Below the pieces are notes generated by a model. The model was not told the origin of the DNA. It searched no databases and saw nothing but the letters and a program-made list of their open reading frames with translations. From an uncultured Actinomycetes bacterium (GTDB taxonomy: Bacteria; Actinomycetota; Acidimicrobiia; IMCC26256; PALSA-555): 64,000 nucleotides of DNA. Below, piece after piece: positions 2,127-64,000 of the stretch; the first letter of the stretch is position 1, and each line of letters opens with the position of its first letter. Position numbers and translations under genes: made by a program. Location of the stretch: positions 66,801 to 130,800 of the forward strand of contig CAWKGF010000001.1 in the NCBI GenBank assembly GCA_963849135.1, written 5' to 3'.

Positions 2127-2169
2127 ACCACCCGAACCGCGCCCTGCCGTCGGTAGGCTGGGGCATCCC

Positions 2170-3631: not shown

Positions 3632-3647
3632 CCGGGCCGGGTGGTGC

Positions 3648-4400: not shown

Positions 4401-4411
4401 GGCGGGGGAGC

Positions 4412-6100: not shown

Positions 6101-6175
6101 GTCGCTCCTGTCGTAGAAGGGGGCTTCCCCGCGTGCCCCGCGCGGACGTCCGGGCCGGCTCGGATCCAGGCCCAG

Positions 6176-6964: not shown

Positions 6965-7323
6965 GGACGTCGGCTCACATCCTCGTGCTGGTTCTGAGCG
7001 TGCTGGTCGTGCTGTTCATCGCCCGGCTCGTGGCGCTCCGCCAGCTGCGCAGCAAGTACGCCCTGCTGTGGCTCGCCAGCGCGGTGCTGCTCCTGCCGCT
7101 CGCCGCGGTGCCGTCCCTCCTGAACGACCTGGCCAGCTGGGCCGGCTTCAAGTACGCGCCCGACCTGCTGTTCTTCTTCGCGACCGGGTTCCTGTTCGCG
7201 GTCGTGATGCACTTCTCCTGGGAGCTGTCCCGCCTCGAGACGCGCGTCCGGCTCCTCGCCGAGGAGCTCGCCCTCGAACGGGCCCGGCGGGTCAGCACCC
7301 AATCGGAGGCACCCGACCGGTAG
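6961..7323 (+). CDS. DUF2304 family small membrane protein (GT2 partner)
   Basis: 120 aa with three or four TM segments and a C-terminal coiled segment (SRLETRVRLLAEELALE). The sequence pattern and the translationally coupled position after a GT2 match my recollection of DUF2304. Confidence 0.7.
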   Translation: MRTSAHILVLVLSVLVVLFIARLVALRQLRSKYALLWLASAVLLLPLAAVPSLLNDLASWAGFKYAPDLLFFFATGFLFAVVMHFSWELSRLETRVRLLAEELALERARRVSTQSEAPDR

Positions 7324-7333
7324 AGTTCGGCCA

Positions 7334-8737: not shown

Positions 8738-8744
8738 CCGCCCC

Positions 8745-9557: not shown

Positions 9558-9659
9558 GGGCGGCGATGGTACGGGAGGCGGCCGCCGAGCCCGCCGCGTG
9601 CCAGGGTGGGCGGGGTGTCCGTCGCTAGGCTTGCGTGCTTCCTGCCCGCGGAGGACCCT

Positions 9660-23789: not shown

Positions 23790-25239
23790 CTACGAGCCCC
23801 CGCCCGGCGCGGCGGCGGCCTCCTCGTCCCGGGACGCGAGCTGCCCCGACATCCGCTCCGCGAGCGACCCCCGCCCGAGCGCCCCCCGGGCGGCCTGGAG
23901 CAGCTCGGCCCGCCGCCGCCACGCCGCCCGCAGCATCCGGGGCCGGGCCAGGCGCCGAGCCGGCAGGTAGCCGAGCTCCCAGATCCCGAGCAGGCCCCAG
24001 AAGGCCAGGTCGTCGCCGACGCCGCCCGGCTCCAGATGGTCGTGGAACCGCATCGAGATGTGCACGTAGTGCACGATCTGGTTCGCGATCGCGTCGGCGA
24101 GCACCCCGGGCGGGGCGGTGATCACGCTCGCCGCGCCGCTCGGGACGGCCGCCACCCGCTCGACCCGCCGTCGACGCACGTCCACCACCCAGTACGGGAG
24201 CGGGTCGCCGGCCACCGCGAAGACGATCGGGCGCCGCACCGCCAGCCGGCCGGTGAGTGGCGGCAGGGCCCGCACGAACGCGCCGAAGAACCGGGAGAAG
24301 TCCTCGAAGGTGAGGGGCCGGTCCTGCTCCTCGTGGGCGCTCCGAGCGATCGCGGTCGACGCCAGGTCGGCCAGCTCCTCGACCGTGCGCTCCCGGTCCC
24401 GGTACCAGTCGGTGCCGTCCAGCTCGAAGCCGGTGCCGCTGTCCCACCGGTCACCGGGTGCCATCACCACCACCTCGGTGGGGGACTCGGGATGCGTCGT
24501 TCGGAACGCGGCCTGCACCTCGGGCGGCGTGATCAGGAACTCGTTGCACGGCCGCGACTCGGGGTGCAAGAACGCCACCATGCTCGCGAACGGCACCGCG
24601 AAGCGCGGCTCGGCCTCCTCGACCGCGCCGAAGAAGTCGTCGAGGAAGCTGCGGCGCGACACCAGCCCCAGCTGGGCCGGGTCCTCTGCGTCGTAGCAGT
24701 TCGGGTACCCCTGCGCGAACGAGTGGCTCTTCAGCATCACGTCCGGGTTCCCGAACCGGCGCACGACCTGACGCAGCGGCCGGCCGTGGATCTTGCAGTC
24801 GTTCACGTCGAAGAGGACCGTCCCGTGATCCGAGACCACGAGCAGCGTGTCATCGAACCCGTACTGGAACGACGCCACCGACACCCCGGGGGCGAAGCTC
24901 CTGCTCCCGGCCGTGGGGCAGCTCGGTGACGTCCTCGAAGCCGAGCCGGTGGAACTCGCCCACCATGAAGTCGACCCCGAACCGGGGCACGAGCACCCGG
25001 GTCCGGCGGTCCAGGCGCCGCAAGGTCGGGTAGTGGAAGTGGTCGAAGTGGTCGTGGGTCAGGTACAGGAAGTCGGGGGCCAGCCACGCCGGGTCGACGT
25101 CCCCGGTGGGCGGGAAGTGCCACCAGGACCGCCAGTAGCACGACCCCGAGAACCATGGGTCGACGAGCAACGTCGGCCCGCTCGTCTCGACGAACAGCGT
25201 GCTGTGCCCGATGACGGTGAAGCGCATGCTGGTCGTCAC
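23790..25239 (-). CDS. MBL-fold metallo-hydrolase with a C-terminal extension; one frameshift in a G5/C5 run at 24888-24892
   Basis: The N-terminus has the LYLTHDHFDHF (HxHxDH) motif. ..ELPHGREQELRP (one frame) continues as GVSVASFQYGFDDTLLVVSDHG in the adjacent frame across a five-base homopolymer. Confidence 0.75.
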
Positions 25240-45898: not shown

Positions 45899-46595
45899 CC
45901 GGCCACCAGCTCGCTGCCCGCGTCGCTCGCCGCGCCCTGCCACACCACCCGGCCCCGCCGCAGGATCACCGCCTGGTCCGCGAGCTCGAGGGCCCGCTCC
46001 ACGTACTGCTCGACGAGGAGCAGCGCCACGCCCTCCTGGCGGGCCTGATGCAAGGCCGTGAACACCAGGTCGACGAGACGGGGCGCGAGCCCGAGCGACA
46101 TCTCGTCGGCGACGAGGAGGCGGGGCGGGGCGGCCAGCACCCGGGCCAGGCTGAGCATCTGCTGCTCCCCACCCGAGAGCGTGCCGGCCTGCTGGCGTCG
46201 ACGCTCGGCGAGCACCGGGAACGTGGCGAGGGCCCGGTCCAGCGCCGCGGTCCGCTCCCCGCGGGGCACCGCGTAGCGGAGCCGGACCCGCAGGTTCTCG
46301 AGCACGGTGAGATGCGGGAAGATCGCCCGCTCCTCGGGCACGTAGGCCAGCCCCTGACCGCTCATCCGGTACGCGGCCCATCCGGTGACGTCACGTCCGC
46401 CCAGCCGGATCCGACCGGCCGAGGGGCGGACCCGCCCGCGATCGCGCCGGCCAGCGAGCTCTTCCCAGCCCCGTTCGGGCCCAGCACCGCCACCGCCGCG
46501 CCGGGCGCCACCTCGACGCTCACGCCGAACAGCGCCTGCGCCTCCCCGTAGGTGACGTCGAGGTCCGAGACCGAGAGCAGCGGCTCGGGTTTCAC
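45877..46595 (-). CDS. ABC transporter ATP-binding protein (LivF-like); one frameshift near 46437
   Basis: GPNGAGKSSLAGAIAG (one frame) continues as RVRPSAGRIRLGGRDVTG...LSGGEQQMLSLARVL in the adjacent frame. Confidence 0.8.
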
Positions 46596-47377
46596 GATCC
46601 CTCCGACGCCGACGCGGAGCCGAGGTAGGCCGCCTGCACCGCCGAGCTGGACCGAATCGCGGCCGGCGGTCCGTCCGCGATCTCCCGCCCGAAGTCGAGG
46701 ACGGTGACGTCGTCGCAGAGCTCGAGCACGAGCTCGACGTCATGCTCGACGAGCACGAACGCCACCCCTCGCTCAGCGCGTGCGGTTCGGAGCGCGGCCG
46801 CGACCCGCTCCGTCTCGTGCACATCCAGGCCCGACGTCGGCTCGTCGAGCAGCACGACCCGAGGCTCGGTCGCGAGCGCCCGCCCCAGCTCGACGATCCG
46901 GCCCGTGCCGAGCGGCACCAGCGACACCGGCTGGCTCGCAACTTCGCGCAGGTCGAGCAGGTCAAGGAGCCCGTCGACGGCGTCGTCCTCACCCGGTGAC
47001 GCCCGGCGGCCCAACCCGATCAGGTCACGCAGCAGCGACCGGTCCCGTCCCTCCTGGATGCGGCGGGCAACGACCAAGTGGTCGCGGACGGTCAGCTCCT
47101 CGAAGAGCTCGAGACGCTGGAAGGTGCGGGCCAGACCCAGCCGAGCCCGGCGCTGCGGGCTCGCCCCGGTGACGTCGACCCCGCCCAGCTCGACTCGCCC
47201 CGACCGGGGGGTAAGCAGGCCCGAGAGCACGCCGAACAGGGTGGTCTTCCCGGCGCCGTTCGGGCCCACCAGGCCCACGATCCCCCCCGCCGGCACGCCC
47301 AGGGCCACGCCCGCCAGCGCGGTGACGCCCCCGAAGCGCACCGCGACGTCACGCGCGTCGAGCAGCAGATCGCTCAC
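46592..47377 (-). CDS. ABC transporter ATP-binding protein (LivG-like)
   Basis: GTG at 47377. GPNGAGKTTLF, LGTGRIVELGRAL and VLLDEPTSGLD. Confidence 0.85.
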   Translation of the reverse strand: MSDLLLDARDVAVRFGGVTALAGVALGVPAGGIVGLVGPNGAGKTTLFGVLSGLLTPRSGRVELGGVDVTGASPQRRARLGLARTFQRLELFEELTVRDHLVVARRIQEGRDRSLLRDLIGLGRRASPGEDDAVDGLLDLLDLREVASQPVSLVPLGTGRIVELGRALATEPRVVLLDEPTSGLDVHETERVAAALRTARAERGVAFVLVEHDVELVLELCDDVTVLDFGREIADGPPAAIRSSSAVQAAYLGSASASEGS

Positions 47378-49357
47378 GCCGCCACCTGCCCCTCGACCGC
47401 GAGGCGTTGGCGGGACCGACGCCGGCGTTTCGCCCGGACCCGCTGCTGGACGTCCGGAATCACGCCGCGTCGGTTGATCGCCAGCCGGATCGCGCCGATC
47501 CCGAAGAGCAGGGTCGGGACCATCGCCCAGCTGGTGGAGAAGTGCTCGCTGAACAGCTGGGGGACGACCGCGTAGAGGATCCCAGCGATCAGCGCCGCGA
47601 GGACGGATCGAATCCCGAAGCTGGCCACGATGGCCAGCCACACGATGCCGATCAGCACCTCGAAGCTGTCCGGCGACGCCCGCCCGATCGTCACCGCGAA
47701 GAGCGCCCCTCCGAGCCCAGCCACGAACGAGCTGAGCCCGAAGGCCAGCAGCTTCGAGCGGACGATCCGCACGCCGACCGTCGCCGCGGCCTGCTCGCTG
47801 GAGCGCATAGACGCCAGCACCAGGCCGGTCGTCGATCGGCGCAGGTTGACGGTCAGCAGCGCGACCAGGCAGAAGACGCCGGCCAGGAGCCAGAAGAACG
47901 TCGTCGGGTCGTTGAAGTTCACCCCGAGGAACACCGGCCGGTTCAGTGAGATCCCGGCGCCGAAGTTGTCGAACTCGGGACGAGCGAACACCAGCTGCTC
48001 GACGAGCAGCGCGAAGGCGAGGGTCGCCAACGCGAGGTACACGTCGCCGAGGCGCAGGCTCAGCGCCGCCACGAGCAGCCCGATCGGCACCGCGACGAGC
48101 GCCCCGGCGAGGATGGCCAGCCCGATCGGCCAGCCGGTCGACGCCGAGAACGGATTCGGGACCAGCCAGCCGAACAGCGGCGAGTGCGTCGCCAGCGACG
48201 CGGTGGTGAGCGCCCCGATCCCGGCCAGGGTGGCCTGACACAGCGACAGCATCCCGCCCTCGCCAGTCACGATCGTGAAGGTCAAGAACAAGATGGCGAG
48301 CGCCGCGCCCTGGCTGACCACCCCCACCCAGAAGGTGCTGAGCCACAGCGGCACCGAGAAGAGCGCCACCGCCACCGCCAGCGGGCCGATCGCGGCCCGC
48401 CAGCCCCGCGGTGGGGGTGGTGGCGGCGCCTCCTCGGCCGCCGGCCCGGCCCGTCGGTCGACGTCGAAGCGCTCTCGTCGGAGGCCCCGGTAGAGGAGCA
48501 AGCAGCCGAGCATCACGATGAACGGGACGCTCGGTCCGAAGCCGGTCGACAACACCCCGTGGCTGGGCAGGAAGTCGACCGAGATGCCCTGGATGAGGCC
48601 GATGACCATCGCGCCGAGGAACGTCAAGGGAAGGCTGGTCAGCCGGCCCACCGTGGCGGCGGCGAGCGACGCGACCAGCAGCAGCGTGAACTCGCCGTTG
48701 TTCAACCCGAGGATCGGGGCCAGCAGGATCCCGGCCAGGCCGGCCAAGACGGTGCCGACCATCCACGAGCCGGCGCTGACCAGCGTGGTGTTGATCCCCG
48801 AGATCGCCGCTGTGCCCGGCGAATCGACGGTGGCCCGAGTCGCCAACCCGACCGGCGTGGCGCGGCAGGAGCGCGCTGAGCGTCACCGCCACGACGACGC
48901 CCCCGATGAGGACCGCGAGCTGGTTGGCGTTGATCGAGACGCCCAGCCAGCCGAGCCGGAAGATCGAGGCTGGCACCCTCGCGAACCCCTGCGACTGCAG
49001 GATCTGACCCTGGCTGAACGGGAACACGAGCTGCACCGCGGCGGGCAGCGCGACCCATAGGCCGACCGTGGCGAGGAACCGGATGTCAGGCGGCGCGTGC
49101 GTCAGGTGCCGGAACAGGATCCCCCACAGGGCCAGACCCAACGCGGGCGAGAACACGAGGAGCGACATTGCCGCCGACGCGGGGATCGACCAGCCGTGCA
49201 CCTGATTCAGCCAATGGAAGAACACCGCGACCGTGTACGCCATGGCCCCGTGCGCGAAGTTGATGACCCGCGACGACGAGTAGGTGAGCACCAGCCCCAA
49301 TGCCGACACGGCGTAGATGCTCCCCAGCACCAGGCCGGCGAGGACATACCCCTGCAA
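47374..49357 (-). CDS. Fused LivH-LivM-type ABC permease (about 660 aa); one frameshift near 48870
   Basis: The N-terminal LivH-like half (GSIYAVSALGLVLTYSSSRVINFAHGAM) continues after ..VAVTLSALL in the adjacent frame as RATPVGLATRATVDSPGTAAISGIN. It then runs without a stop into a LivM-like half (GEGGMLSLCQATLAGIGA). Confidence 0.8.
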
Positions 49358-54468: not shown

Positions 54469-55413
54469 GTGCCTCACGACCGCAAGTTCCGATTCGGCGT
54501 CATGGCCCCCCGAGCCGAGTCGGGGTCGCAGTACCGCGACGCGGCTCGACGGTGGGAGGACCTCGGCTACTCGACCCTGTTCGTCCCCGACCACTTCGTC
54601 GACCATCCCCTCGCGCCCATCCCGGCCATGGCGATGGTCGCCGAGGCGACCACCACGCTGCGGGTCGGGTCGCTCGTCCTCGGCAACGACTACAAGCACC
54701 CCGTCGTCCTCGCCCGGGAGGCCGCGACCCTCGACTTCCTCTCGGACGGTCGCCTCGAGCTCGGGATCGGCGCCGGGTGGATGACCGCCGACTACGAGCA
54801 GGCCGGCCTGACCCTCGACCCACCGGGCGTCCGGGTCGAGCGGCTCGGCGAGTCGATCACCGTCCTGCGCGGCCTCTTCGCCGACGAGCCGCTCACCTTC
54901 GACGCGCAGCACTACCACATCCACGGACTCGACGGGATGCCGAAACCCGTCCAGCGTCCGGCTCCGCCGATCATCGTCGGCGGCGGTGCGAAACGGGTCC
55001 TGTCGCTCGCGGCCCGCCAAGCCGACATCGTCGGGATCAACGCCAACCTCCGACGCGGCGAAGCCCAACACCCCGACGCCGCCCACTCGCTCAGCGCCGC
55101 GGCAACCGACCAGAAGCTCGGATGGGTCCGCGAGGCCGCCGGTGACCGCTTCGACGACCTCGAGATCCAGCAGTACGCCGGGTTCGTGCTCTTCACCGAC
55201 GACCGCCAGTCGCTGGCCGAAGCGATGGCACCCGCCTTCGGCGTGAGCCCCGAGATGGCGCTCGAGACCCCGATCGCGATCGTCGGGACCGCCGAGCAGA
55301 TGCTCGACGACCTCGTCGCCCGCCGGGAACGATGGCAGATGAGCTACGTCGTGGTCGACGACGCGGTCGCCGAGCAGTTTGCGCCGATCGTCGCCAACCT
55401 CGCCGGTACTTGA
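54469..55413 (+). CDS. LLM-class F420-dependent oxidoreductase
   Basis: FRFGVMAP..GYSTLFVPDHF..LGNDYKHP..ELGIGAGW are luciferase-like monooxygenase motifs. Paralogous to the next gene. Confidence 0.8.
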   Translation: MPHDRKFRFGVMAPRAESGSQYRDAARRWEDLGYSTLFVPDHFVDHPLAPIPAMAMVAEATTTLRVGSLVLGNDYKHPVVLAREAATLDFLSDGRLELGIGAGWMTADYEQAGLTLDPPGVRVERLGESITVLRGLFADEPLTFDAQHYHIHGLDGMPKPVQRPAPPIIVGGGAKRVLSLAARQADIVGINANLRRGEAQHPDAAHSLSAAATDQKLGWVREAAGDRFDDLEIQQYAGFVLFTDDRQSLAEAMAPAFGVSPEMALETPIAIVGTAEQMLDDLVARRERWQMSYVVVDDAVAEQFAPIVANLAGT

Positions 55414-55420
55414 GGACGCG

Positions 55421-56362
55421 ATGGCGCACGACCGCACGTTCCGCTTCGGGGTCCAGGTCGGCGGATCGCACGATCCGGCCAGCTGGCGGGAGCTGGCCCG
55501 CAAGATCGAGGCCCTCGGCTACTCGACTCTGTTCATGCCCGACCACTTCATCGACACCGAGCTCGCCCCGATGGTCGGCATCTCGTTCGCGGCCGCCGCC
55601 ACCGACCAGCTCCGAGTTGGGATGCTCGTCCTCGGCAACGACTACAAGCACCCCGCCGTCACCGCCAAGGAGGCCGCGACGGTCGACGTGCTGTCCAACG
55701 GCCGCCTCGAGTTCGGGCTCGGAGCCGGCTGGATGCAAACCGACTACGAGGCCCTCGGCCTCGCCTACGACCCGCCCCGCGCCCGCATCGAACGGCTCCA
55801 AGAGGCCCTCGCGATCGTCAAGGGCGCCTGGGGTGACGGCCCCTTCGACCACGACGGCGCCAACTACACGATCCGCTCCTACAACGGCATCCCCAAGCCC
55901 GCCCAGCAGCCCCGCCCGCCGATCGTCATCGGCGGCGGAGGGCCTCGGCTGCTGCGCCTCGCCGGACAGGAGGCCGACATCGTGGGGATCAACCCGAACC
56001 TGCGCGCCGGCGCGATCACCGAGGACGCGCTCCGCTCCGCCCTCGCCGACCAGACCCGCCAGAAGATCGCCTGGGTCCGCGAAGGCGCCGGCGACCGCTT
56101 CGACGACCTCGAGCTCCAGATCCGCTACTACCTCTCCGCGATCACCGACGACGCCCGAGGGTTCGCCGACGCGCTCGCCCCCGGGTTCGGGCTCACCGCC
56201 GACGAAGCACTCGAATCGGGCACCGCGCTCCTCGGCACCGTCGACGAGGTCTGCGACACCCTCCAGCAGCGGCGCGAAGCCTGGGGGGTGTCCTACATCG
56301 TGGTCGGCGACAACAACTTCGAAGACTTTGGACCCGTCGTCGCTCGGCTCGCCGGAACCTGA
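55421..56362 (+). CDS. LLM-class F420-dependent oxidoreductase (tandem paralogue)
   Basis: FRFGVQVG..GYSTLFMPDHF..LGNDYKHP..EFGLGAGW. Collinear similarity to 54469..55413 is visible by eye. Confidence 0.8.
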   Translation: MAHDRTFRFGVQVGGSHDPASWRELARKIEALGYSTLFMPDHFIDTELAPMVGISFAAAATDQLRVGMLVLGNDYKHPAVTAKEAATVDVLSNGRLEFGLGAGWMQTDYEALGLAYDPPRARIERLQEALAIVKGAWGDGPFDHDGANYTIRSYNGIPKPAQQPRPPIVIGGGGPRLLRLAGQEADIVGINPNLRAGAITEDALRSALADQTRQKIAWVREGAGDRFDDLELQIRYYLSAITDDARGFADALAPGFGLTADEALESGTALLGTVDEVCDTLQQRREAWGVSYIVVGDNNFEDFGPVVARLAGT

Positions 56363-56475
56363 CCACCAGCTCCTCGCGCCAACGACCGGGGCCGAGCCAG
56401 TGCCCCGCCGGCCGGCGGGCCACAGCACGACAACATCCAGGTGCGAGACGGCCTGCGCTATTCTCGACTGCTCGC

Positions 56476-56548
56476 GCGGACGTGGCTCAGCTGGTAGAGC
56501 ATCACCTTGCCAAGGTGAGGGTCGCGGGTTCGAATCCCGTCGTCCGCT
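56476..56548 (+). tRNA. tRNA-Gly: tRNA-Gly (anticodon GCC)
   Basis: Cloverleaf folded by hand: acceptor GCGGACG/CGTCCGC, D arm GCTC-AGCTGGTA-GAGC, anticodon arm TCACC-TTGCCAA-GGTGA, T arm GCGGG-TTCGAAT-CCCGT. The following bases are CCG, so CCA is not encoded here. Confidence 0.9.
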
Positions 56549-57729
56549 CCGAATAATCGCTGGTCAGCGGCCTCGTTCGAGGCCGCTGATGCTTCTCGGA
56601 GCTGTCGCGGATTTGCGTGGGCCGCGTGTGGGCCGCGGAGCGCGGCCCGGCGCGCTGGAAGGTGTCCTCGAGACTGGCGGCGAGGGCTTGGCGGGCGGCG
56701 GGGAACAGGTGCCCGTAGCGATCCGAGGTGACGCGGATCGTGGAGTGCCCGAGGTGGGCTTTGATCTCTTCGAGGTGTCGCCCGTCGGCGATGAGCAGCG
56801 CGGCGCAGGTGTGCCGCAGGTCATGGAAACGAAGCCGCGGGTTGAGTCCGGCATGCTCGACGGCGGGCCGGAAGTGGCGGGCGTAGAAGTTGCGATGCCG
56901 GATGGGGCCGCCTTCGGCGGCGCTGAACACGAAGCCGTCGCGGGACGGGTAGCGGCCGATGTGGGCGCCGAGCACGCCAGCGAGGAACGCGGGCAGGCCG
57001 ATGGTGCGGGGCCGCCCGGTCTTGGTGGGCCCGATCACCAGACGACCGCGCACTTCGCTGAGCGATTCGACGACGTCGAGGGTGCGGGCGAGTAGCTGCA
57101 GATGACCGACGCGCAGCGCGCCGAGCTCGCCGGCGCGCAGGCCGCCGTAGGCGGCGGTGTAGATCAGGACCCGGTAACGGTCCTCGATGGCGTCGGCGAG
57201 CTGGTTGACCTGCTCGGCGCTGAGGAACAGCATTTCTTCGCGGTTACGGTCGGAGGGCAGCTCGATGCCCCGGCACGGTGAGCGGGAGATCAGGTCGTCG
57301 ATGACGGCCTGCTCGAAGATCTGGACGGCGATCTGGTAGATCGCATGCACGCTGGCCGGCGCGAGGCCCTGGGCGACGAGGTCAGCCACCCAGGCGCGGA
57401 TATCCGACGGACGCACCCGCGCGACCGCCATATTCCCGAACGCTGGCAGCACATAGTTGCGCAGCCGTCCTTCGACGTTGACGTAGCTGCGCGGGCTCAC
57501 GCTGGCCTTGGTGCTCAGCCAGTCCGCCGCCACGACGCAGACGGGTGTGCGCGCCGAGCGCGGGGTCGATCCACTCGCCGCGACTCTTGGCGGCAAGCAC
57601 CGTGTTGAGAAACCGCTCCGCGTCGGCACGCCGAGCAAAGCTTCGGGAACGCTCCCGACCGTTGGGGTCGCGGTAGCGGGCCCGCCACACGTTGCGACCT
57701 GTGCGGCGCCGCCGCTCGATGTGAGCCAT
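56502..57729 (-). CDS. int: Tyrosine-type site-specific integrase; one frameshift near 57555; ORF runs into the tRNA
   Basis: MAHIERRRRTGRNVWRARYRDPNGRERSRSF..GEWIDPALG (one frame) continues as ARTPVCVVAADWL... in the adjacent frame. The catalytic region has GLRAGELGAL, HDLRHTCAALL, LGHSTI and SDRYGHL. No stop occurs until 56502, within the tRNA. Confidence 0.85.
56507..56550. repeat. attL: 44-bp direct repeat (3' part of tRNA-Gly), identical to 60404..60447
   Basis: ttgccaaggtgagggtcgcgggttcgaatcccgtcgtccgctcc occurs identically at both positions, compared base by base. Confidence 0.9.
56564..56589 (+). terminator. Hairpin just downstream of tRNA-Gly (element-borne)
   Basis: tcagcggcctcg-tt-cgaggccgctga, a perfect 12-bp inverted repeat starting 14 nt after the tRNA. 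It lies inside the 3' extension of the integrase ORF. Confidence 0.5.
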
Positions 57730-57868
57730 CACATCACTCCGTCGACGCACTCATGCGGTTGTGAGGGCCGCTGTATCGCCCATAGAGGCCGCTCCAGCAT
57801 CGACGTGGTAGTCGGGTACAGGAAGATTTGCTCGCGTCGCGGTCGTGCCTTGATGTGTACACCGCGCG

Positions 57869-58093
57869 TCAAGACGCGTCGCGGCGCGCCGCGAGCCACG
57901 CCTCGACATCCTCGACCCGGTAGCGAACGTGCCGGCCGACCCGATAGCCGCGCGGTCCTTCGCTGCGGGAGCGCCACCGGTACACGGTCCGCAGCGGCAC
58001 GCCCAGGAACGCGGCGACCTCATCGGGGCCGACGAGCCGCGCCGCCGACGGGCCGGCGTCGTGATGCCTGGCACCAGCGCTGTTGGGTTTCAT
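57869..58093 (-). CDS. xis: Excisionase-family DNA-binding protein (HTH_17/MerR-like)
   Basis: LVGPDEVAAFLGVPLRTVYRWRSRSEGPRGYRVGRHVRYRVEDVEAWL is the typical excisionase HTH. Met start at 58093. Confidence 0.75.
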   Translation of the reverse strand: MKPNSAGARHHDAGPSAARLVGPDEVAAFLGVPLRTVYRWRSRSEGPRGYRVGRHVRYRVEDVEAWLAARRDAS

Positions 58094-58475
58094 GTTCACG
58101 AAGCGCCTCTCTGCGATTGGGTAGTCATGCGCGAAGCCGCGCACCTACACCAAGCGCAAACCCGCACGCCGAGGGGGACACCCATCGCGAAGAAATCCGG
58201 TCTCGAACGACGCCAGCGACACGCAGTACGGGCACGGTGCGCGCCCGGACAAAACTGGTGCGGGCATATAGCGCCCCGGCGAGTCTGCTCCTCGTAGTTC
58301 ATGCGATGGTTCATGTTTTGAGGCCCGTTAGTTCAGATTCGCGTTTCTTTTCCGTCTGGGCCCGAGCGGCGGAATCTGAACTTCAGGTCGGAGGATCTGA
58401 AGTTCAGATCATCAACCGCTGTTCAGCTGGGTCGCCGATGACCCACTGGCAACCGGTAGGAGCAGGGGTCGGCTC

Positions 58476-58643
58476 ATGAACATGCCCAAGCGGTCGGTGC
58501 GGATGTCAGAAGGGGCGGGGACGCTCGAGATGGACGCCCCCGACGTCTACGCGTTGATCGGCGATCGAGGCGAGCTCAGGGCCGGCAGGGGCCGTGACGG
58601 CGTCGTCTACGTGCCCGAACAAGCTCTCCGGGGCTACCAGTAG
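58476..58643 (+). CDS. Small ORF (55 aa), possible HTH/excisionase-like protein
   Basis: Below the ORF-track cutoff, translated by hand: MNMPKRSVRMSEGAGTLEMDAPDVYALIGDRGELRAGRGRDGVVYVPEQALRGYQ. A GGAG-containing stretch (taggagcagggg) lies about 15-25 nt upstream of the ATG. Flanked by repeated GTTCAGATTCGC motifs. Weak resemblance to the ..VYRLI..GELPAxRVG.. pattern. Confidence 0.35.
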   Translation: MNMPKRSVRMSEGAGTLEMDAPDVYALIGDRGELRAGRGRDGVVYVPEQALRGYQ

Positions 58644-59077
58644 CGACACGCAACAGGATCTCGCTAGCTCGAACCGTCGGGGCCGGGAGCGGCAGTCACC
58701 AGGCGTGGCCGGCGTTGCGAACCGTGAAGTTCAGATTCGCAGGGCAGCGGACGCTGCAAGTGTGTCTCTCGCGAGATCCTGGTCGCGGGGGTCACTGGGT
58801 GTGCACGGACGGTGATGGCGAGAGCCGGGAGTTGATGCGCGAGTCCGGTTGTTCGGGAATGGCTCGGCGTGGACGCCGAGGGGTGTGGCCTATTGTCATC
58901 TCCCGCCCACGTCGCCGGGTGGTCGGAGATCGGTCGAGGTGCTGGGCCCGGGCGCCGGGGCCTCGGCTCGGCCAGTTAGCCAGCCCGAGACCGTTCCCGG
59001 AGCCGCTCGGAAGGCTAGGGTCCTACGGCATCGGATGCTCGGCGGGAAGCCCGGCCGGGAAGCGGAGGTCGTGCGGC

Positions 59078-60208
59078 ATGAGGCTGCGTCTGGCGGGTGC
59101 AGGGGTAGGCGCGGCAGCGACCGCCGTGTTGGGTGTGGTGGCGCTGGCGGTGGGCTCGGGTCCGGCGGGGGCGGCGCCGACGACGCTGTTCTCCTCGAGC
59201 ACGGCCGGGCCGCTGGTATCGGCGACCGTGCCGGCTGGCATCTGTTTCGTGACCATCAGCGCTGCAGGCGGGCATGGGGGCGCCAACAGCGACGGCAGCC
59301 AAGTCGGCGGCGCGGCGGCGAGCCTCACCGCCAGAGTGGCCGTCACCCCAGGCGAGTCCCTTACCGTCCAGGTCGGCGGCGCGGGCGCAACCGCCCCCTC
59401 GGCGACGCAGGCTGGTGCTGGCGGGATCGGCGGCGGCGGCGGCGGCGCGGCAGCGAGTCCGGCCGGCGGTGGCGGCGGTGGTGCCTCGGCGGTCAGTGGT
59501 CCTACGGGACCCCTGGTCGTCGCTGGCGGCGGCGGGGGCGGCGGGGGCGGCGTGGGCGGGGCCGGCGGAACGCTTGGAAACCCGGGCGGGAACGGCGGCA
59601 CCAACGGGTTCGCCGGAACCGAAGGCGTCGGCGGCGGCACCAACGGGGTCGGCGTCGGCGGCACTGGTGGCACCGACTTCGACGTCGCCGGCGCTGGGAG
59701 CGGCGGTGGCGTCATCGCTGGTGGCCCCGCCGCCGAGGGTGGCGGGGCCGGCGGAGGTGGTGCCAACGGGATCGGCGGGGGCGGCGGTGGTCCCGGCTCC
59801 GTGGCGAGCGCCGCCGGGACGGGCGGGACGGGCGGTGCCGCTGGTCAGATCGGCCAAGCAGGAACCGCCAGCCCCTTGATCAACGGCAACGGCGGGGTCG
59901 GCAATGACAGCGGCGGCAACGCCGGGGTTGCCGGTGGTGCCGGTGGCGGCGGGGGCGGCGGTGGCGGGATCGGCTTCGGCGGCGGCGGCGCCGCCCTCGA
60001 AGCTGGGGGCGGCGGGGGTGGCGCCGGGTATGGGGCCGGGGGTGGCGGCCTTGGCGGTGGCGGCGGGGGCTCCTCGTTCGAGGTGCCCGGTGCGACGAAC
60101 GTCGTTCCTCCGGTGCTCAGCGGGAGCAGTCAGGTGACTATCAGCTACGACCCGAGCACCGACAGCTGCCCGACTGCGCTGGTCGTGGCTCCAAGTTTCA
60201 CCGGATAA
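59078..60208 (+). CDS. Secreted glycine-rich domain protein (element cargo)
   Basis: Signal peptide MRLRLAGAGVGAAATAVLGVVALAVGSGPAGAAP. The core (ICFVTISAAGGHGGAN...SLTARVAVTPGESLTVQVGGAG...PLVVAGGGGGGG) resembles the glycine-rich domain family (Gly_rich-type). Cys-containing C-terminus. Confidence 0.7.
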   Translation: MRLRLAGAGVGAAATAVLGVVALAVGSGPAGAAPTTLFSSSTAGPLVSATVPAGICFVTISAAGGHGGANSDGSQVGGAAASLTARVAVTPGESLTVQVGGAGATAPSATQAGAGGIGGGGGGAAASPAGGGGGGASAVSGPTGPLVVAGGGGGGGGGVGGAGGTLGNPGGNGGTNGFAGTEGVGGGTNGVGVGGTGGTDFDVAGAGSGGGVIAGGPAAEGGGAGGGGANGIGGGGGGPGSVASAAGTGGTGGAAGQIGQAGTASPLINGNGGVGNDSGGNAGVAGGAGGGGGGGGGIGFGGGGAALEAGGGGGGAGYGAGGGGLGGGGGGSSFEVPGATNVVPPVLSGSSQVTISYDPSTDSCPTALVVAPSFTG

Positions 60209-60403
60209 GTACCGGGCCTACAACGGGGATGGCGCGACGCTCACGCATGTTGCGTGTGGTCGCTGGTTTCCGCTGATCCAAGCTGTTGGGCCGCGAGTGG
60301 GCCGCGGAAGGTCACGAAACATCGACATTCACCGCCAGCTGTTGACAGACGTCTGTGCTGGTCACCCCGGATCTTGGCTGATCACGTCTCCGCATCGGTC
60401 GGA

Positions 60404-60447
60404 TTGCCAAGGTGAGGGTCGCGGGTTCGAATCCCGTCGTCCGCTCC
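60404..60447. repeat. attR: displaced original 3' end of tRNA-Gly (44-bp copy), here followed by A so that CCA is encoded
   Basis: Identical to 56507..56550. The sequence continues ..cgtccgctCCA at attR but ..cgtccgctCCG at attL. Confidence 0.9.
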
Positions 60448-60460
60448 AAGAAGTGCTGGT

Positions 60461-60484
60461 CAGGCCTTCGTTCTCGGAGGCCTG
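60461..60484 (+). terminator. Hairpin after the displaced tRNA 3' end (probable ancestral tRNA terminator)
   Basis: caggccttcg-ttct-cggaggcctg, a 10-bp stem with one G-U pair. Its position and flanking gctggtcag are homologous to the hairpin at 56564..56589. Confidence 0.5.
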
Positions 60485-60526
60485 TCGCATTCTCGGGCGG
60501 GTCGTGTCCATCCACTGTCCATCCCC

Positions 60527-60572
60527 GGTGTCGGTACCGGGTCTTGACAGGTGTCGGTACCGGGTCTTGACA
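60527..60572. repeat. Perfect 23-bp tandem direct repeat x2 (ggtgtcggtaccgggtcttgaca)
   Basis: Read directly from the sequence. Each unit contains the palindrome CGGTACCG and a TTGACA hexamer. A partial third unit (tgtcgg) follows. Confidence 0.9.
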
Positions 60573-60602
60573 TGTCGGCAGCGGGGAGACGTGCTGGGCG
60601 CG

Positions 60603-60911
60603 TCAAGGTCTGTTGTCCCACCGGGTCATTTTGGTGAGGGTGGGGTCCATGATCAGCTGCAAGGCGTTCTGGGCCATCACGTTGGACGCGACACGCGCCT
60701 GCCAGCCGAGAACGGCCTCGGTCCAGTCCTGCGTCGAGACGCCCGCCCGCTCTGCGTTCGTGGCGGTCACGTTGCCGCCGGCACCGGCCCGCGGGATCTG
60801 GGTCACCTGGACGTAGGTCTGGAGGCTGACCCCGTTGATCGGCTGCAACTCGGGGCTGTCCCAATCGATCCCCCACTTTTGCTCCGGAGTACGCCTACGG
60901 AATAGACCCAT
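60603..60911 (-). CDS. Hypothetical protein (102 aa)
   Basis: ATG start and good GC3 coding bias when translated by hand. No family recognised. Confidence 0.55.
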   Translation of the reverse strand: MGLFRRRTPEQKWGIDWDSPELQPINGVSLQTYVQVTQIPRAGAGGNVTATNAERAGVSTQDWTEAVLGWQARVASNVMAQNALQLIMDPTLTKMTRWDNRP

Positions 60912-61009
60912 GACCCCTCCCTTGCGGTGGTCGTGGCGCGAGCCGCGTCAAGCGGCGCGCCGCCAACATGATCGCAGCCACCCAACGCAGAGTCCTGAGT
61001 AGACGCTAC

Positions 61010-61255
61010 TCAGACCAGCAGGCCAGGCACCGGCTCCGGGGGCACAGCGGCGTCTCTCGTCACCAAGTCATGGTCGAGGAGGAGGAAGAAAAAGAACAAG
61101 AAGCTCACGAACACGAAGACGATGATCAGCATCGTCGTGATGATCACGAAGAGGGCGACGAGCAGGGCGACGAAGACGACGGGCAGCAAGGGCATGAACA
61201 AGAACAGCCGGCAGGCGCGGGAGAGCCCCGGTTCCGGGTACCTCATCGCCGGCAT
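61010..61255 (-). CDS. Small, extremely hydrophobic membrane protein (81 aa)
   Basis: About 43 consecutive hydrophobic residues (LFLFMPLLPVVFVALLVALFVIITTMLIIVFVFVSFLFFFFLLL). Minus-strand codons are GC3-rich (TTC, GTC, CTG, ATC), whereas the overlapping plus-strand acidic ORF uses GAA/GAT. A hairpin overlaps the stop codon. Confidence 0.6.
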   Translation of the reverse strand: MPAMRYPEPGLSRACRLFLFMPLLPVVFVALLVALFVIITTMLIIVFVFVSFLFFFFLLLDHDLVTRDAAVPPEPVPGLLV

Positions 61256-61294
61256 CAGGACTTCTCTCGCCCGGTGAGGGTCTTGAGAACGCCT

Positions 61295-61391
61295 GTAAAC
61301 GATCGTTTATAAGGGGTGGGTGTAAGCGTTCGTTTTCAGTTGGCACATGTAAACGAACGTATACAATAGATAATTGTAAACGCTCGCTTAC
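61295..61391. promoter_or_regulatory. Array of four 16-bp pseudo-palindromic operators (consensus GTAAACGnnCGTTTAC) with exact 27-bp phasing
   Basis: GTAAACGATCGTTTAT (61295), GTAAGCGTTCGTTTTC (61322), GTAAACGAACGTATAC (61349) and GTAAACGCTCGCTTAC (61376). They lie in an AT-rich divergent region between the 81-aa membrane ORF and the XRE/HipB-like gene. Confidence 0.8.
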
Positions 61392-61395
61392 ACTA

Positions 61396-61716
61396 TTGAA
61401 ATCGCTCCAAAATTCCGCCCAAAAGGGACATCGCGAAAATCAGCTCGCCCCACGACCTCGCGGTGGCCGCCCGCAGCCGACGCCAGGACCTCGGCCTGAT
61501 GCAGACCGAGCTGGCGTCGCAGGCCGGGGTCTCCCGTCTCTGGCTCAACCAGATCGAGGGCGGGCAAGCCAACCGCCGAATTCAGCCTCGTGATCCGCCT
61601 CGTTGACGCTCTTGGCCTCCGTCTTGAGCTGCACAGGGGACGACGTCCGCGGCGACGACGCCTTCCCGCCATCGCGAGATCTCGACAAGGTACTTAGGGA
61701 CTACCGCAACCGATGA
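61396..61716 (+). pseudogene. XRE-family HTH, HipB-like antitoxin gene, frame broken about three times
   Basis: Joining frames gives MKSLQNSAQKGHRE / ISSPHDLAVAARSRRQDLGLMQTELASQAGVSRLWLNQIEGG / KPTAEFSLVIRLVDALGLRLELHR / DDVRGDDAFPPSRDLDKVLRDYRNR*. The breaks lie near 61436 (A-run), 61563 and 61640. The stop overlaps the next ATG (ATGA). Confidence 0.6.
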
Positions 61717-61835
61717 CCGACCCACTCGTCGCCATCCTCGAGACGCCCGTGGACGCCTCCGCTTCGACTATGCGGACGCCGAGGGAGCTATGCCGTCGGC
61801 GGTGGCTATTCCTCATTCCAGTCATTGATCACGAC
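61713..61835 (+). pseudogene. HipA-family toxin gene remnant (N-terminal 40 or so codons only, frameshifted)
   Basis: MTDPLVAIL.. then, one frame over, DARGRLRFDYADAEGAMPSAVAIPHSSH*. This resembles the HipA N-terminal coupling domain (L.V.L.g..vG.L.F.Y). The kinase body is absent, since the next gene starts at 61961. Confidence 0.5.
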
Positions 61836-61960
61836 GCGGGTTTGGGCCAGGGATCAGAAGATGTTGAAATAGTGCTCAAGCGACATCCCGAGCAGTGACG
61901 CGTTACCCAGGCCACAGGCGCGGTGCGGGGGCGACCGTGACCGGTCAGAGAGGCGGTGTC

Positions 61961-62704
61961 ATGTCCAACGCGCAGTTGTACGACACCATCGGAGCCACCT
62001 ACACCGTGACCCGTCGCACCGAGCCGCGGATCGCCGCGCGGATCTGGGCTGCGCTCGGCGATGCCCGGACAGTACTGAACGTCGGGGCGGGCACCGGGTC
62101 CTACGAGCCCCCCGACCGCCACGTCCTCGCGGTGGAACCGTCGGCGCTCATGCGTTCGCAGCGCCTCCCTGACGCGGCGCCGTGCCTGGCTGCATCTGCC
62201 GAGAACCTGCCGTTCGATGACCAGTCCTTCGACGCCGCGATGGCTTTTTCCACCGTTCATCACTGGCAGGACCCGATCGCCGGCCTGCGCGAGATGCGGC
62301 GCGTTGCTCGCCGCGTGGTGGTGTTCACGTTCGACACCAGTGTCCCTAGCCAGTTCTGGCTGACTCGTGACTACCTGCCCGAGTTCGCTGCCTTGAGAGC
62401 CTGCAGAGTCTTGGCATCGCTGACCGAGCTGGCCCGCGCGATCGGAGCCCAGATGGAACCGGTGCCCATCCCGTGGGACTGCGCTGACGGCTTCTTCGAG
62501 GCCTACTGGCGCCGGCCCGAGGCATACCTGGACGAGAATGTGCGTCGCGGAATATCGGTCTGGGCCACAGTCGGGCCGGATGCCGAGCAGAGGGCAGTGC
62601 ACAGCCTCCGCAATGACCTCACCTCAGGTCGGTGGGCCGAACGCAACCGCGACCTCGTCGATCTCGACGCAGCAGAGCTTGGTGCGCGCCTGCTTATCGC
62701 CTGA
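61961..62704 (+). CDS. Class I SAM-dependent methyltransferase
   Basis: VLNVGAGTGSYEP (motif I), LPFDDQSFDAAMAFSTVHHW and REMRRVARRVVVF. Confidence 0.8.
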   Translation: MSNAQLYDTIGATYTVTRRTEPRIAARIWAALGDARTVLNVGAGTGSYEPPDRHVLAVEPSALMRSQRLPDAAPCLAASAENLPFDDQSFDAAMAFSTVHHWQDPIAGLREMRRVARRVVVFTFDTSVPSQFWLTRDYLPEFAALRACRVLASLTELARAIGAQMEPVPIPWDCADGFFEAYWRRPEAYLDENVRRGISVWATVGPDAEQRAVHSLRNDLTSGRWAERNRDLVDLDAAELGARLLIA

Positions 62705-62816
62705 ACCCGCCACATCTGGGTACGGTCTCTTCGGGTCCGCTGGTTGGTTGCTTCACGGTGGCCGGGCTCGGATTATCGTCCTGGCGGCGAGGCGGCCTTA
62801 GCTCGAGGGAGTTGGC

Positions 62817-63062
62817 ATGACTGCACTCAACGTGTCGATGGTGACAGACCACGGGCACCGGATTGTGCTCAGCACCGAAGGTACTCAGGTCGAGCTTCCA
62901 CCCGTGGAGAACCTGCTCTTCTACGCTGGGCTCGGCGCGCTGGTCGCGGCCAACGTGGTCGAGTTGCCGGTGGCGCTCGTGCTCACCGTCGGCCACATCC
63001 TCATTCAGCTGACGCACCGCCCCGGGCTGGAGGCACTCGGCGCCGCCTTCGAGGAGGTCTGA
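62817..63062 (+). CDS. Hypothetical small protein (81 aa) with one hydrophobic segment
   Basis: ATG start preceded by gggag, and an acceptable coding bias. No family recognised. Confidence 0.4.
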   Translation: MTALNVSMVTDHGHRIVLSTEGTQVELPPVENLLFYAGLGALVAANVVELPVALVLTVGHILIQLTHRPGLEALGAAFEEV

Positions 63063-63241
63063 TCGACGCGGTCCGCGTCTGTCTGGGAGCAACTCCAACC
63101 GGTTGAATGCCCGGCCCCTGGGCACGGCAACCCACGTGGCGTCCATGGCTCCCGCTTCCTGCCCAACACGCATCTCGTTGGCGGCACCCGTTTCAGTCGT
63201 CGCGGACAGCCGGGCGGCAGTTGCTCCGTCCCGGTTCGTCT

Positions 63242-64000
63242 CTAGAGGTCGCTGACCCCGGTGGGCTCGGTCGGACGCGGGTCACGAGGCCCCTGCTGGT
63301 CGCCGCGGTGCGCGACGAGTTGCTCTCCCAAGCGGGCGAGCGCCCGTGGCACCACCACAGAAGCGCCCGTCGCCCCGGTCGAGGCGCCGACTGCGGTGAG
63401 CCAGCCGATCGGGCCGAGCGGACGGCATCCAAAGAACTGGCTGATGCCCGGAACCTGAATCGCGGCGATCAGCGCGGCCGCACTGGCGCCGGTCGCGCCG
63501 AGCACGAGGGGGCTTCGGCCGCCAACGACCAACGTCTGACCGAGTTGGGTCCCCACCAGCGCGGCGAGCGCGATCGTCCGTGCTCGGGTCGGTGTGCCCG
63601 TCATGCGCGCGATGACCCAGGCGGTTGTCGCGCCGGTGGCGGTCGCGCCTGCTCGCACAGCGATCTGGCGGGCGAGAGCGCCACCCAGTGACGCGTCAGG
63701 TCCGGCGTAGAGGAGCGCCTCGGTCGTGCGGTCGGGTGGTTCCCGCAGGGCGATCGCGAGGGCGGGAGCCATGTCGGTCAGCAGATTGACGAGGAGGAGC
63801 TGTCGGGGGTTGAGTGGCGAGGTGCCCGTGATCGCTGAGCCGACCAGGATGAATCCCATCTCGCCGAGGTTTCCGCCGACCAAGATGCCCACGGCATCAC
63901 GGACTGAGTCCCACATGCCCCGGCTCTCCGCGATGGCGTCGACGATCGTCTCGATTCGATCGTCGAAGATCACCACGTCCGCGGTGGCTCGGGCGGCGGC
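63242..64000 (-). CDS. Cation-transporting P-type ATPase, C-terminal part (5' end outside the window)
   Basis: ADVVIFDDRIETIVDAIAESRGMWDSVRDAVGILVGGNLGEMGF...PRQLLLVNLLTDMAPALAIAL is the post-hinge and TM5-TM6 region of P-type ATPases. The frame stays open to base 64000. Confidence 0.8.
   Translation of the reverse strand, partial: AAARATADVVIFDDRIETIVDAIAESRGMWDSVRDAVGILVGGNLGEMGFILVGSAITGTSPLNPRQLLLVNLLTDMAPALAIALREPPDRTTEALLYAGPDASLGGALARQIAVRAGATATGATTAWVIARMTGTPTRARTIALAALVGTQLGQTLVVGGRSPLVLGATGASAAALIAAIQVPGISQFFGCRPLGPIGWLTAVGASTGATGASVVVPRALARLGEQLVAHRGDQQGPRDPRPTEPTGVSDL

Follow-up and report, generated by a model that had tools for sequence, protein, structure and literature searches.

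A minimal integrase-excisionase cargo island in the only tRNA-Gly(GCC) gene of an uncultured Acidimicrobiia assembly

We analyzed a stretch of 64,000 nucleotides (hereafter the window) from an uncultured actinobacterium (GTDB lineage Acidimicrobiia; IMCC26256; PALSA-555), which covers positions 66,801 to 130,800 of contig CAWKGF010000001.1 in GCA_963849135.1, an assembly of 3.33 Mb in 5 contigs. Towards the right end of the window, 3.9 kb of DNA are bracketed by two copies of the 3' part of a tRNA-Gly(GCC) gene. This segment is an integrated site-specific element, neither ancestral DNA nor an assembly duplication. It is a minimal, non-autonomous cargo island with an integrase (int) and an excisionase (xis), genuine yet fairly ordinary and of a kind common in the lineage. 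We hold it quite probable that it is also structurally complete, i.e., a minimal site-specific integrative island and not a fragment of one. Its borders are formed by the following features:

56476..56550, plus strand: tRNA-Gly(GCC) gene (ARAGORN; Rfam tRNA match of 71.8 bits)
56507..56550, plus strand: attL core, left copy of a perfect 44-bp direct repeat (repeat finder)
60404..60447, plus strand: attR core, right copy of the repeat and displaced original 3' part of the tRNA gene; the next base is A, so that CCA is encoded
60448..60525, plus strand: original tRNA trailer with the hairpin GGCCTTCG..CGGAGGCC, displaced by 3.9 kb; near-identical sequence follows directly after the intact tRNA gene in the congeners G006 and G009

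A previous sequence-only reading of this DNA had placed perfect 44-bp repeats at these positions, running from the anticodon loop to the 3' end of the tRNA, and the repeat finder and ARAGORN both bear this out. The two copies are identical and spaced by 3,897 nt, and the block of identity extends from position 32 of the tRNA, where the anticodon loop begins, to the ...GCTCC end. A perfect match of 44 nt within 64 kb cannot be due to chance. We considered a third att copy, or a tandem array further downstream in the source genome, and rejected it, since a 31-nt core of the repeat has exactly two occurrences in the whole assembly.

To compare this locus with its relatives, we searched the region 55400-61900 against 40 related genomes. 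The left flank, composed of two luciferase-like monooxygenase (LLM) genes and the tRNA gene, is kept in essentially all congeners. The 3.9-kb segment as a unit was found in none of the 40 genomes, and its interior matched only through the integrase (68-74% nucleotide identity in G029, G035 and G036) and through paralogues of the cargo gene. When attL and attR were aligned with eight congeners, the intact tRNA gene of G006 and G009 was seen to abut 78 nt that correspond to window 60448-60525, including the hairpin GGCCTCCG...CGGAGGCC. The junction between tRNA and trailer is thus contiguous in these two congeners and interrupted in the window; hence, the 3.9 kb are an insertion. On the inner side, the sequence just within attL (GAATAATCGCTGGTCAGCGGCCTCGTTCGAGGCCGCTGATGC...) matches the corresponding position in two related metagenomic loci, L039 and L040. 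Composition differs as well, the GC content at third codon positions (GC3) being 0.79-0.87 in the genes of the element and 0.91-0.97 in neighbouring host genes. An exact search for the right end of the element in GTDB genomes gave no match. With the unoccupied site in G006 and G009, the refuting condition set by the sequence-only reading is answered in favour of mobility. The related int-xis units at tRNA-Gly that this reading had proposed to look for in other genomes are exemplified by L039, where int-xis comes with other cargo.

Could the repeat be an assembly artefact, or could an ancestral, non-mobile segment be flanked by a chance or duplicated repeat? The former would be in keeping with an assembly that is prone to indel errors, but the two repeat copies are flanked differently on both sides, and the same junction of tRNA, int and xis occurs in independent genomes and in metagenome contigs (L039, L040). 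Congeners moreover show the uninterrupted junction of tRNA and trailer, and the same segment lacking repeats, the case that the sequence-only reading had named as speaking against mobility, occurs in none of the 40 relatives. We regard this explanation as extremely improbable.

The insertion has consequences for its target. Because tRNA-Gly(GCC) is the single gene for this anticodon in the assembly, it needs to remain functional. From the anticodon loop on, its 3' part is now supplied by the element at attL, and the native trailer/terminator is replaced by a hairpin that the element carries:

56564..56589, plus strand: element-borne hairpin CAGCGGCCTC-GTTC-GAGGCCGCTG, located inside the C-terminal tail of the integrase

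L039 and L040 have the same hairpin after the core. In an Rfam search of the element, the tRNA was the only match. The base that follows the attL core is G, so that the rebuilt gene reads CTCCG and does not encode CCA. In the alignment, CTCCA is found in 8/8 congeners, in L039 and L040, and at attR, and CTCCG only at attL of the window. Unless CTCCG is a base error, the sole tRNA-Gly(GCC) would depend on the CCA-adding enzyme.

The recombination genes lie next to attL and are transcribed towards it:

56502..57729, minus strand: tyrosine integrase of the lambda-Int type with an N-terminal arm-binding-type domain (Pfam, PHROG, homology), in two frames
57869..58093, minus strand: excisionase (recombination directionality factor) of the HTH_17 family, directly upstream of int; alternative GTG start at 58144

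The integrase is read from an N-terminal open reading frame (ORF) at 57382..57750 and a body at 56502..57638. It matches Phage_integrase (1.3e-21), Phage_int_SAM_3 and Phage_int_M in Pfam, as well as PHROG 1 (6.7e-58), and its homologues carry the Pfam domain Integrase_N_phage. The conserved active-site residues R, K, H, R, H and Y are all present and are invariant in the alignment of homologues. The frame-stitched protein has 1,546 homologues, nearly all of them from metagenomes of Acidimicrobiia/Actinomycetota. The taxon names of these homologues point to an uncultured member of Acidimicrobiia/Acidimicrobiales as the host. The closest ones, both intact, are P0003 (423 aa, 79% identity), encoded at L039, and P0002 (408 aa, 78% identity), encoded at L040. 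The integrase ORF crosses the att core, and its stop codon (56502-56504) lies within the tRNA gene. P0002, P0011 and P0036 end in the same ...ERTTGFEPATLTLAR, and other homologues read the tRNA in another frame. Since conservation ends with the catalytic DRYGHLF helix, the read-through is a run-on in GC-rich DNA and no lesion; judging from these C-termini, running through the core into the tRNA is a trait of the family. The excisionase matches HTH_17 in Pfam (3.4e-14), TIGR01764 'excise' (4.4e-9, above the cut-off) and PHROG 66, and shares 71-77% identity with the gene that lies upstream of int in L039 and L040. No record was found for it in an exact-protein look-up in public assemblies.

The assembly has only one other tyrosine recombinase (C3:399970-403332), which is 28% identical to the integrase and lies 2 kb from a homologue of AAA_25-type primase-helicases. 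This locus may be a second, replication-competent integrative element.

The comparison with the two nearest loci delimits a conserved and a variable part. Window 56444-58066, which comprises the tRNA, int and most of xis, is 80-81% identical to L039 and L040 at the nucleotide level (blastn). Beyond 58066 nothing aligns with them except one block of 74% identity with L039 (window 58745-58829). L039 is syntenic with the window, with a dUTPase gene, two LLM genes, tRNA-Gly, int and HTH_17, which are followed by DUF2442/DUF4160 and other genes; its attR was not found within 10 kb. In L040, int comes with a DUF4258/MqsA pair. In both loci, the payloads are small pairs resembling toxin-antitoxin systems.

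The 9-mer TGGGCCGCG occurs six times in the window, and four of these copies form two tandem pairs of the same orientation with a period of 11 nt:

56618..56637, plus strand: candidate arm-type sites of the int-proximal arm, TGGGCCGCG-TG-TGGGCCGCG, 67 nt from the attL core
60287..60306, plus strand: candidate arm-type sites of the distal arm, TGGGCCGCG-AG-TGGGCCGCG, 97 nt from the attR core

Tandem arm repeats are the expected signature of the arm-type sites that are read by the N-terminal domain of lambda/L5-type integrases. To assess whether they are usual in this family, we compared the arms of every member for which both att copies had been found. Each of these delimited members has 2-3 direct repeats with a period of 10-11 nt on both arms, and the sequence of the repeat is specific to the element:

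L032, element of 6.9 kb: arm repeat AAGTCCGCG
L057, element of 10.9 kb: arm repeat TTTGGTCCG
L054, element of about 10.2 kb: arm repeat TTTGGTCCGC
L078, element of 8.7 kb: arm repeat ACTCCGCGA
L101, element of 11.3 kb: arm repeat ATCTGACACA
L074, element of 5.9 kb: arm repeat CGTGCAACATC

Because its paired repeats stand on both arms in the layout of the family, the 3.9-kb element appears to keep a complete attP equivalent, which argues against its ends being accidental deletion boundaries. The window integrase thus shows no essential difference from lambda/L5-type integrases: it has the R-K-H-R-H-Y residues, the N-terminal arm-binding-type domain and paired direct repeats on both arms, the run-on of its ORF into the tRNA being a quirk of a high-GC family. 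The classification of Williams (2002) reportedly recognises the anticodon loop as one sublocation of tRNA genes used for integration, and the identity block of the window, which runs from the anticodon loop to the 3' end of the tRNA, is of this class.

Within the integrase family, the delimited elements measure 3.9 (the window), 5.9, 6.9, 7.3, 8.5, 8.7, 10.2, 10.9, 10.9 and 11.3 kb. In other words, the window element is the smallest delimited member. The elements use many different tRNA genes, always with the 3' end of int at the tRNA, and their payloads vary widely. At a syntenic tRNA-Gly in a metagenome-assembled genome (MAG) of Acidimicrobiia (L121, identical to L041, positions 1-11300), a related integrase is followed by genes for HTH_17, an AAA_25 primase-helicase, a small terminase (Terminase_4) and an HK97-type Phage_capsid protein. 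This element is roughly 10 kb or more in size, as its distal end lies beyond the 10 kb examined, and its gene content makes it a candidate capsid-forming, satellite-like phage satellite. AAA_25 is also found at L123. At tRNA-Ala in a Microthrixaceae MAG (L078, 3824-12613), an 8.7-kb element with the same integrase family has a gene for a TrwC relaxase-helicase of 903 aa next to int and is, on this gene content, a compact integrative mobilisable element (IME). The payload of L074 includes AAA_21, HEPN, MarR and ECF-sigma genes.

The tRNA-Gly(GCC) gene itself is a hotspot in the lineage: at least two integrase types target it, and the payloads include anything between single genes and modules that are satellite-like or bear a relaxase. 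In G002, G016, G019, G020, G027, G029 and G036, the same tRNA is accompanied by small elements of 0.8-7 kb and by att copies in tandem. The second, unrelated type of tyrosine integrase is transcribed away from the tRNA and also targets tRNA-Gly(GCC) in this bacterial order, where it forms very small elements, too. Its loci are L035 (7024-10718), L030 (1250-2856) and L034 (2625-3455), and it was seen in three genomes:

G019: 3.6-kb element with a PIN toxin gene
G006: gene beside the tRNA
G020: gene within the array of att copies

G002 (C1:91836-135126; L021-L023) has four att copies over ~43 kb, which define segments of 6.3, 4.1 and ~33 kb and include a different integrase, ArsR/permease genes, an intact hipBA and a homologue of the small orf55 described below. 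This array is a hotspot in which several elements have accreted. G006 has an integrase of another type behind the trailer, so the 'trailer' at 60448-60525 of the window may itself belong to an older island, in which case the 3.9-kb element would be the latest arrival.

The DNA to the right of attR (window 60448-63700) looks like older island material, with a GC3 of 0.77-0.85 against 0.91-0.97 in core genes. It holds a DUF6620 fragment, a HipB-type helix-turn-helix (HTH) gene with four palindromic operators and a decayed hipA, and is 92% identical to a stretch of G002 between att copies, where hipA is intact. Just past the tRNA trailer, window 60523-60568 is a perfect 23-nt tandem duplication (GGTGTCGGTACCGGGTCTTGACA x2), which is present as a single copy at the homologous place in G002.

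The remainder of the window element consists of a control region, one small gene and one cargo gene:

58328..58410, no strand assigned: divergent control region between xis-int and orf55 with three operator-like AGTTCAGAT copies, including a 17-bp palindrome at 58394-58410
58476..58643, plus strand: orf55, 55 codons, by pattern a small excisionase/MerR-like (HTH_17-like) DNA-binding protein
58728..58830, plus strand: fourth AGTTCAGAT copy and a block of ~85 nt, with the hairpin CAGCGGACGCTG and then AAGTGTGTCTC..., conserved with L039
59078..60208, plus strand: cargo gene for a secreted glycine-rich protein of 376 aa (signal peptide, profile search, paralogues)

The divergent region between xis-int and orf55 spans 330 nt and is relatively AT-rich (61% GC). 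The motif AGTTCAGAT has four matches in the window against 0.02 expected, all in intergenic regions of the element; the fourth copy, at 58728, is situated past orf55, with 350 nt between it and the cargo gene. A scan for consensus promoters gave no match. The product of orf55 has no significant family in Pfam, NCBIfam or PHROGs. It has a full-length homologue of 56% identity in the congener G002 (L021, 8564..8752, E 3e-13), and both proteins, when inspected by eye, read like an HTH_17/excisionase fold (...EAVYGLIGRGELRAGKGQDGLVYVPERALEEY), with the motif ...VYxLIGxGELRAGxGxDGxVYVPExAL. Hence, orf55 probably encodes a regulator. From this arrangement we infer a small switch, in which one or both of the HTH proteins acting on AGTTCAGAT operators would balance the leftward transcription of xis-int against the rightward transcription of orf55 and the cargo gene. 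The non-coding block of ~85 nt (window 58745-58830 against L039 8479-8566, 74% identical) had no match in Rfam nor in the relaxase-bearing L078. It is possibly a promoter, a site resembling an origin of transfer (oriT) or a small RNA.

The sequence-only reading had the cargo gene begin at 58715; the ATG at 59078 is the more likely start, as it has GGAGG 8 nt upstream and is followed by a signal peptide. After the signal peptide come a glycine-rich domain of ~190 aa (VPAGICFVT...VTPGE.L.V.VGG...GGGGGGASAV...PLVVAGGGGGGG), a Gly-rich spacer and a short conserved C-terminal block that ends in ...ALVVAPSFTG-COOH (window 60180-60208). The protein has no significant family in Pfam, NCBIfam or PHROGs, with sub-threshold Pfam matches only (Gly_rich_2, E 0.006, and ALK_LTK_GRD), and no record was found in an exact-protein look-up in public assemblies. 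A word-index search for homology gave one weak match for the N-terminal region and none for the C-terminal region. An AlphaFold2 model from a 5-sequence alignment had a mean predicted local distance difference test score (pLDDT) of 43, too low to be used. Paralogues of 56-62% identity are found at several other loci of the source genome. We rejected the idea that the cargo is a recent duplicate of a host gene, since even the best paralogues reach only these values. With a profile built from five paralogues, we identified 12,966 homologues or representatives at E<=1e-3, including giant proteins in which the domain is repeated up to 18 times. The cargo is one more copy of a secreted or envelope protein typical of the lineage.

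The PxFTG-COOH ending is found in 9/16 cargo homologues of similar size. In the source genome, 21 ORFs of at least 120 codons end in PxFTG, on several unrelated N-terminal domains. A Gly-rich protein ending in PTFTG is also carried by a 6.9-kb element at the same tRNA in G036. The FTG tail has the look of a C-terminal tag for sorting or anchoring in Acidimicrobiia, one that is as yet undescribed.

The FTG-tailed loci of the source genome include C2:279665, C3:672623, C3:787672 and C3:1405662, and the FTG-tailed homologues are P0137, P0158, P0170, P0177, P0181, P0184, P0190, P0254 and P0258. In these proteins the tail is a bare ...(V/I)xxPxFTG-stop, with no transmembrane segment after it, and the N-terminal domains are glycine-rich, beta-helix-like or of a 'VTVTNVF' type. 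A Bacteroidota-like homologue has a C-terminal domain resembling those of the type IX secretion system (T9SS) where the FTG tail sits.

The sequence-only reading had counted four genes (an integrase, an excisionase-type HTH, a 55-codon ORF and one cargo gene) and no replication, transfer or structural functions. Pfam, NCBIfam and PHROGs agree, as no Rep, FtsK/Tra, relaxase or phage structural domain was found in the four genes, and only int and xis matched PHROGs. The element has what characterizes an integrative element, namely repeats of the tRNA 3' part at both ends, an integrase beside att and an unoccupied site in relatives. We then compared it with the known classes of such elements. Actinomycete integrative and conjugative elements (AICEs), such as pSAM2, SLP1 and pMEA300, measure 9-24 kb, their defining features being a replication gene and a Tra protein of the FtsK/SpoIIIE type. 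The window element resembles them in its actinobacterial host, its int-xis pair and its integration at a tRNA 3' end, with an identity segment close to the ~45-60 nt of AICE att sites. Unlike them, it has no replication initiator (RepSA, RepAM or Prim-Pol) in any ORF and no FtsK/SpoIIIE-type Tra translocase. IMEs and cis-mobilisable elements are said to be covered in reviews by Bellanger/Guedon and colleagues. As in IMEs, the element is small and non-self-transmissible, with its own integrase and cargo, and its relative L078 has the TrwC relaxase; unlike in IMEs, no relaxase domain was found in it. The prophage-remnant comparison revealed integration and excision functions only, with no structural, lysis or replication gene in Pfam or PHROGs.

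Phage satellites, i.e., phage-inducible chromosomal islands (PICIs), capsid-forming PICIs (cfPICIs), phage-inducible chromosomal minimalist islands (PICMIs) and P4-like elements, share with the window element an integrase at one end, a small HTH (AlpA/Xis-like) gene and a divergent regulatory region, and the family includes L121 at the same tRNA, with its capsid, small terminase and AAA_25 genes. Unlike them, the window element has no primase or replicase, packaging, interference or capsid-redirecting genes. To our knowledge, 3.9 kb is below the size of any described phage satellite. These likenesses raise the question of whether the element is a helper-dependent hitchhiker, i.e., a minimal phage satellite or cis-mobilisable element whose non-coding regions would contain a pac/cos-like or oriT-like site for a helper phage or for a relaxase encoded elsewhere to recognise. 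Such a role would be compatible with a complete island, as its route of transfer, and it is favoured by the presence of the same integrase family on satellite-like (L121) and relaxase-bearing (L078) elements, by a layout in which int-xis and the regulator gene diverge around a cluster of operator-like sites, as they do in phage-inducible islands, and by the conserved hairpin-containing block at 58745-58830. Nevertheless, we find it quite doubtful: the element has no packaging, interference, primase or relaxase gene, its 3.9 kb fall well short of any known capsid fill, HK97-type capsid genes are absent from the assembly, which has a single FtsK_SpoIIIE match (on another contig and presumably housekeeping), and the non-coding block is unmatched in L078.

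Small elements with few genes have been described outside Actinobacteria. In marine Prochlorococcus, which has tycheposons and cryptic tRNA-flanked elements, about half of 937 such elements have no hallmark genes beyond integrase and excisionase (bioRxiv 10.1101/2020.12.28.424599). Their tRNA hotspots show tandem accretion, in which newer arrivals displace older ones outward, and the variants that carry cargo have one integration module in common with those that are PICI-like, with capsid/terS (Hackl et al., bioRxiv 10.1101/2020.12.28.424599). The claim that the window element is far smaller than typical thus holds against AICEs and its own family; its small size is less unusual than that claim implied, because int/xis-only tRNA elements were already described in Prochlorococcus. 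Like these tycheposons, the window element is a tyrosine-recombinase element between a full and a partial tRNA, with a site-specific integrase and cargo, and the Acidimicrobiia family has similar tRNA hotspots, tandem accretion and an integration module shared by cargo and PICI-like variants. It differs in that the integrase, which faces inward in tycheposons by definition, here faces outward, is transcribed towards the tRNA and overlaps it with its 3' end. The shared hallmark replication genes are also absent, the window element having no replication module, and the host is a member of soil/freshwater Acidimicrobiia.

An alternative that has to be weighed throughout is that the element is a decayed stump: a larger element of ~6-11 kb, satellite-like or mobilisable, would have lost its replication, packaging or relaxase genes through an internal deletion, int would be a pseudogene, and the whole would be a fixed relic with att scars. 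Several observations weigh against a complete island, and most of them fit such a decay. The integrase is in two frames; should its extra base be real, the element would be unable to move at present. Non-coding stretches of 435 nt (58644-59077) and 195 nt (60209-60403), together ~630 nt, are compatible with gene loss. The change from CCA to CCG at attL could be a mutation after integration. More distant members of the family, such as L121 at the same tRNA and syntenic position, with AAA_25, Terminase_4 and Phage_capsid, are ~10 kb in size and have replication and packaging genes, L078 has its TrwC relaxase, and an origin by deletion is therefore possible; the 85-nt block in common with L039 looks like a leftover. 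The reconstructed attP junction had no match in an exact search of JGI metagenome contigs. Finally, that the candidate arm sites would bind integrase and that the AGTTCAGAT copies would act as operators is suggested by pattern and comparison.

The weight of the frameshift depends on the quality of the assembly. According to tblastn with the intact P0002, the frame is broken by one extra base at ~57553-57563, in ...GGCGCGCAC..., which agrees with the single frameshift that had been noted before, as the stop at 56502-56504 agrees with the absence of a stop ahead of the tRNA. The assembly has an estimated completeness of 67% with 5 contigs; other congeners in few contigs reach 78% (1 contig) and 82% (6 contigs), and short-read MAGs 94-98%. 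In the window, ORF reading revealed frameshifts in housekeeping-type genes for a permease (LivH), a hydrolase of the MBL fold and an oxidoreductase (FAD, with at least 3 breaks), which in window order or otherwise occupy 2170-3837, 23790-25239 and 46592-49357, and some of these breaks lie in non-homopolymer GCGC-like contexts resembling that of the integrase. Genome-wide, a Viterbi analysis of codon usage gave 284 frameshift candidates (~85 per Mb), an uncalibrated, lower-bound indication of which the 3/3 candidates in the window were verified by ORF reading; it missed the integrase frameshift because it scores most of the element as non-coding. Integrases are also split in other long-read relatives (G036 and G002). 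This is likely an indel-rich long-read assembly. At about one indel per 10 kb, the chance of an artefactual one in a 1.2-kb gene is roughly 10%, too high to be neglected, and the element has no lesion besides this one. A sequencing artefact and a real mutation are about equally likely. Given that housekeeping genes of the assembly have about one frameshift per 10 kb, some of them in GCGC-like contexts, the integrase frameshift cannot be used as evidence of decay.

Two further facts speak against a stump. Both att cores are perfect and both arms have paired arm-type repeats in the family layout, and the closest relatives (80% nucleotide identity in int-xis) are likewise small cargo carriers without Rep or packaging genes. 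We consider the stump unlikely. The sequence-only reading had left the choice between a mini-element and the stump of a larger island; the evidence leans to a complete mini-element, because of the family-typical repeats on both arms, and present activity would be a claim beyond that evidence.

If the element is a complete mini-island, its history may be reconstructed as follows. A lambda-type integrase would have recombined the chromosomal tRNA-Gly(GCC) gene with an attP that contained the last 44 nt of this tRNA, with a crossover in or near the anticodon loop. At attL, the tRNA would have been restored by the element, complete with a trailer hairpin of element origin, and the former 3' half and trailer would have come to lie 3.9 kb downstream, at attR. 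The xis-int genes and the arm repeats of 11-nt period form a conserved cassette (~80% nucleotide identity with relatives), everything distal to it being swappable cargo. In the window, this cargo part comprises the HTH_17-like regulator, a control region with four putative operators and one secreted glycine-rich, FTG-tailed envelope protein. Int would carry out integration, and Int with Xis excision, so that the element could at most excise and reintegrate. Because it has no replication, conjugation or packaging genes, its movement between cells would be rare or require an external vehicle, be it a helper element, a phage, vesicles or transformation; another conceivable route is recombination within the conserved flanks.

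One may go further and propose that int-xis with element-specific arm repeats is the common chassis of a tycheposon-like system in soil/freshwater Acidimicrobiia, to which relaxase, satellite (capsid/terS/primase) or pure-cargo payloads are fitted interchangeably. The window element would then be an active minimal shuttle with a four-operator excision switch, which spreads FTG-tailed envelope proteins via sibling elements or phages. This extension is speculative and we would not expect it to hold in full; if true, an active shuttle would lead to diversification of the cell surface between strains.

From an uncultured and little-studied class of actinobacteria, the element offers a clean and fully delimited example of the smallest working unit of a tRNA island (an att core, two pairs of arm sites, int, xis, a regulator and one gene). 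It leaves current concepts unchanged and is useful for the annotation of islands in MAGs of Acidimicrobiia and for the construction of integration tools. More novelty may lie in the FTG-tailed protein family than in the element, and the cargo links the island to the larger question of what role a bare PxFTG tail has on ~20 secreted proteins per genome. The element is thus a compact exemplar of, and a pointer to, an Acidimicrobiia-wide family of modular tRNA-targeting elements.

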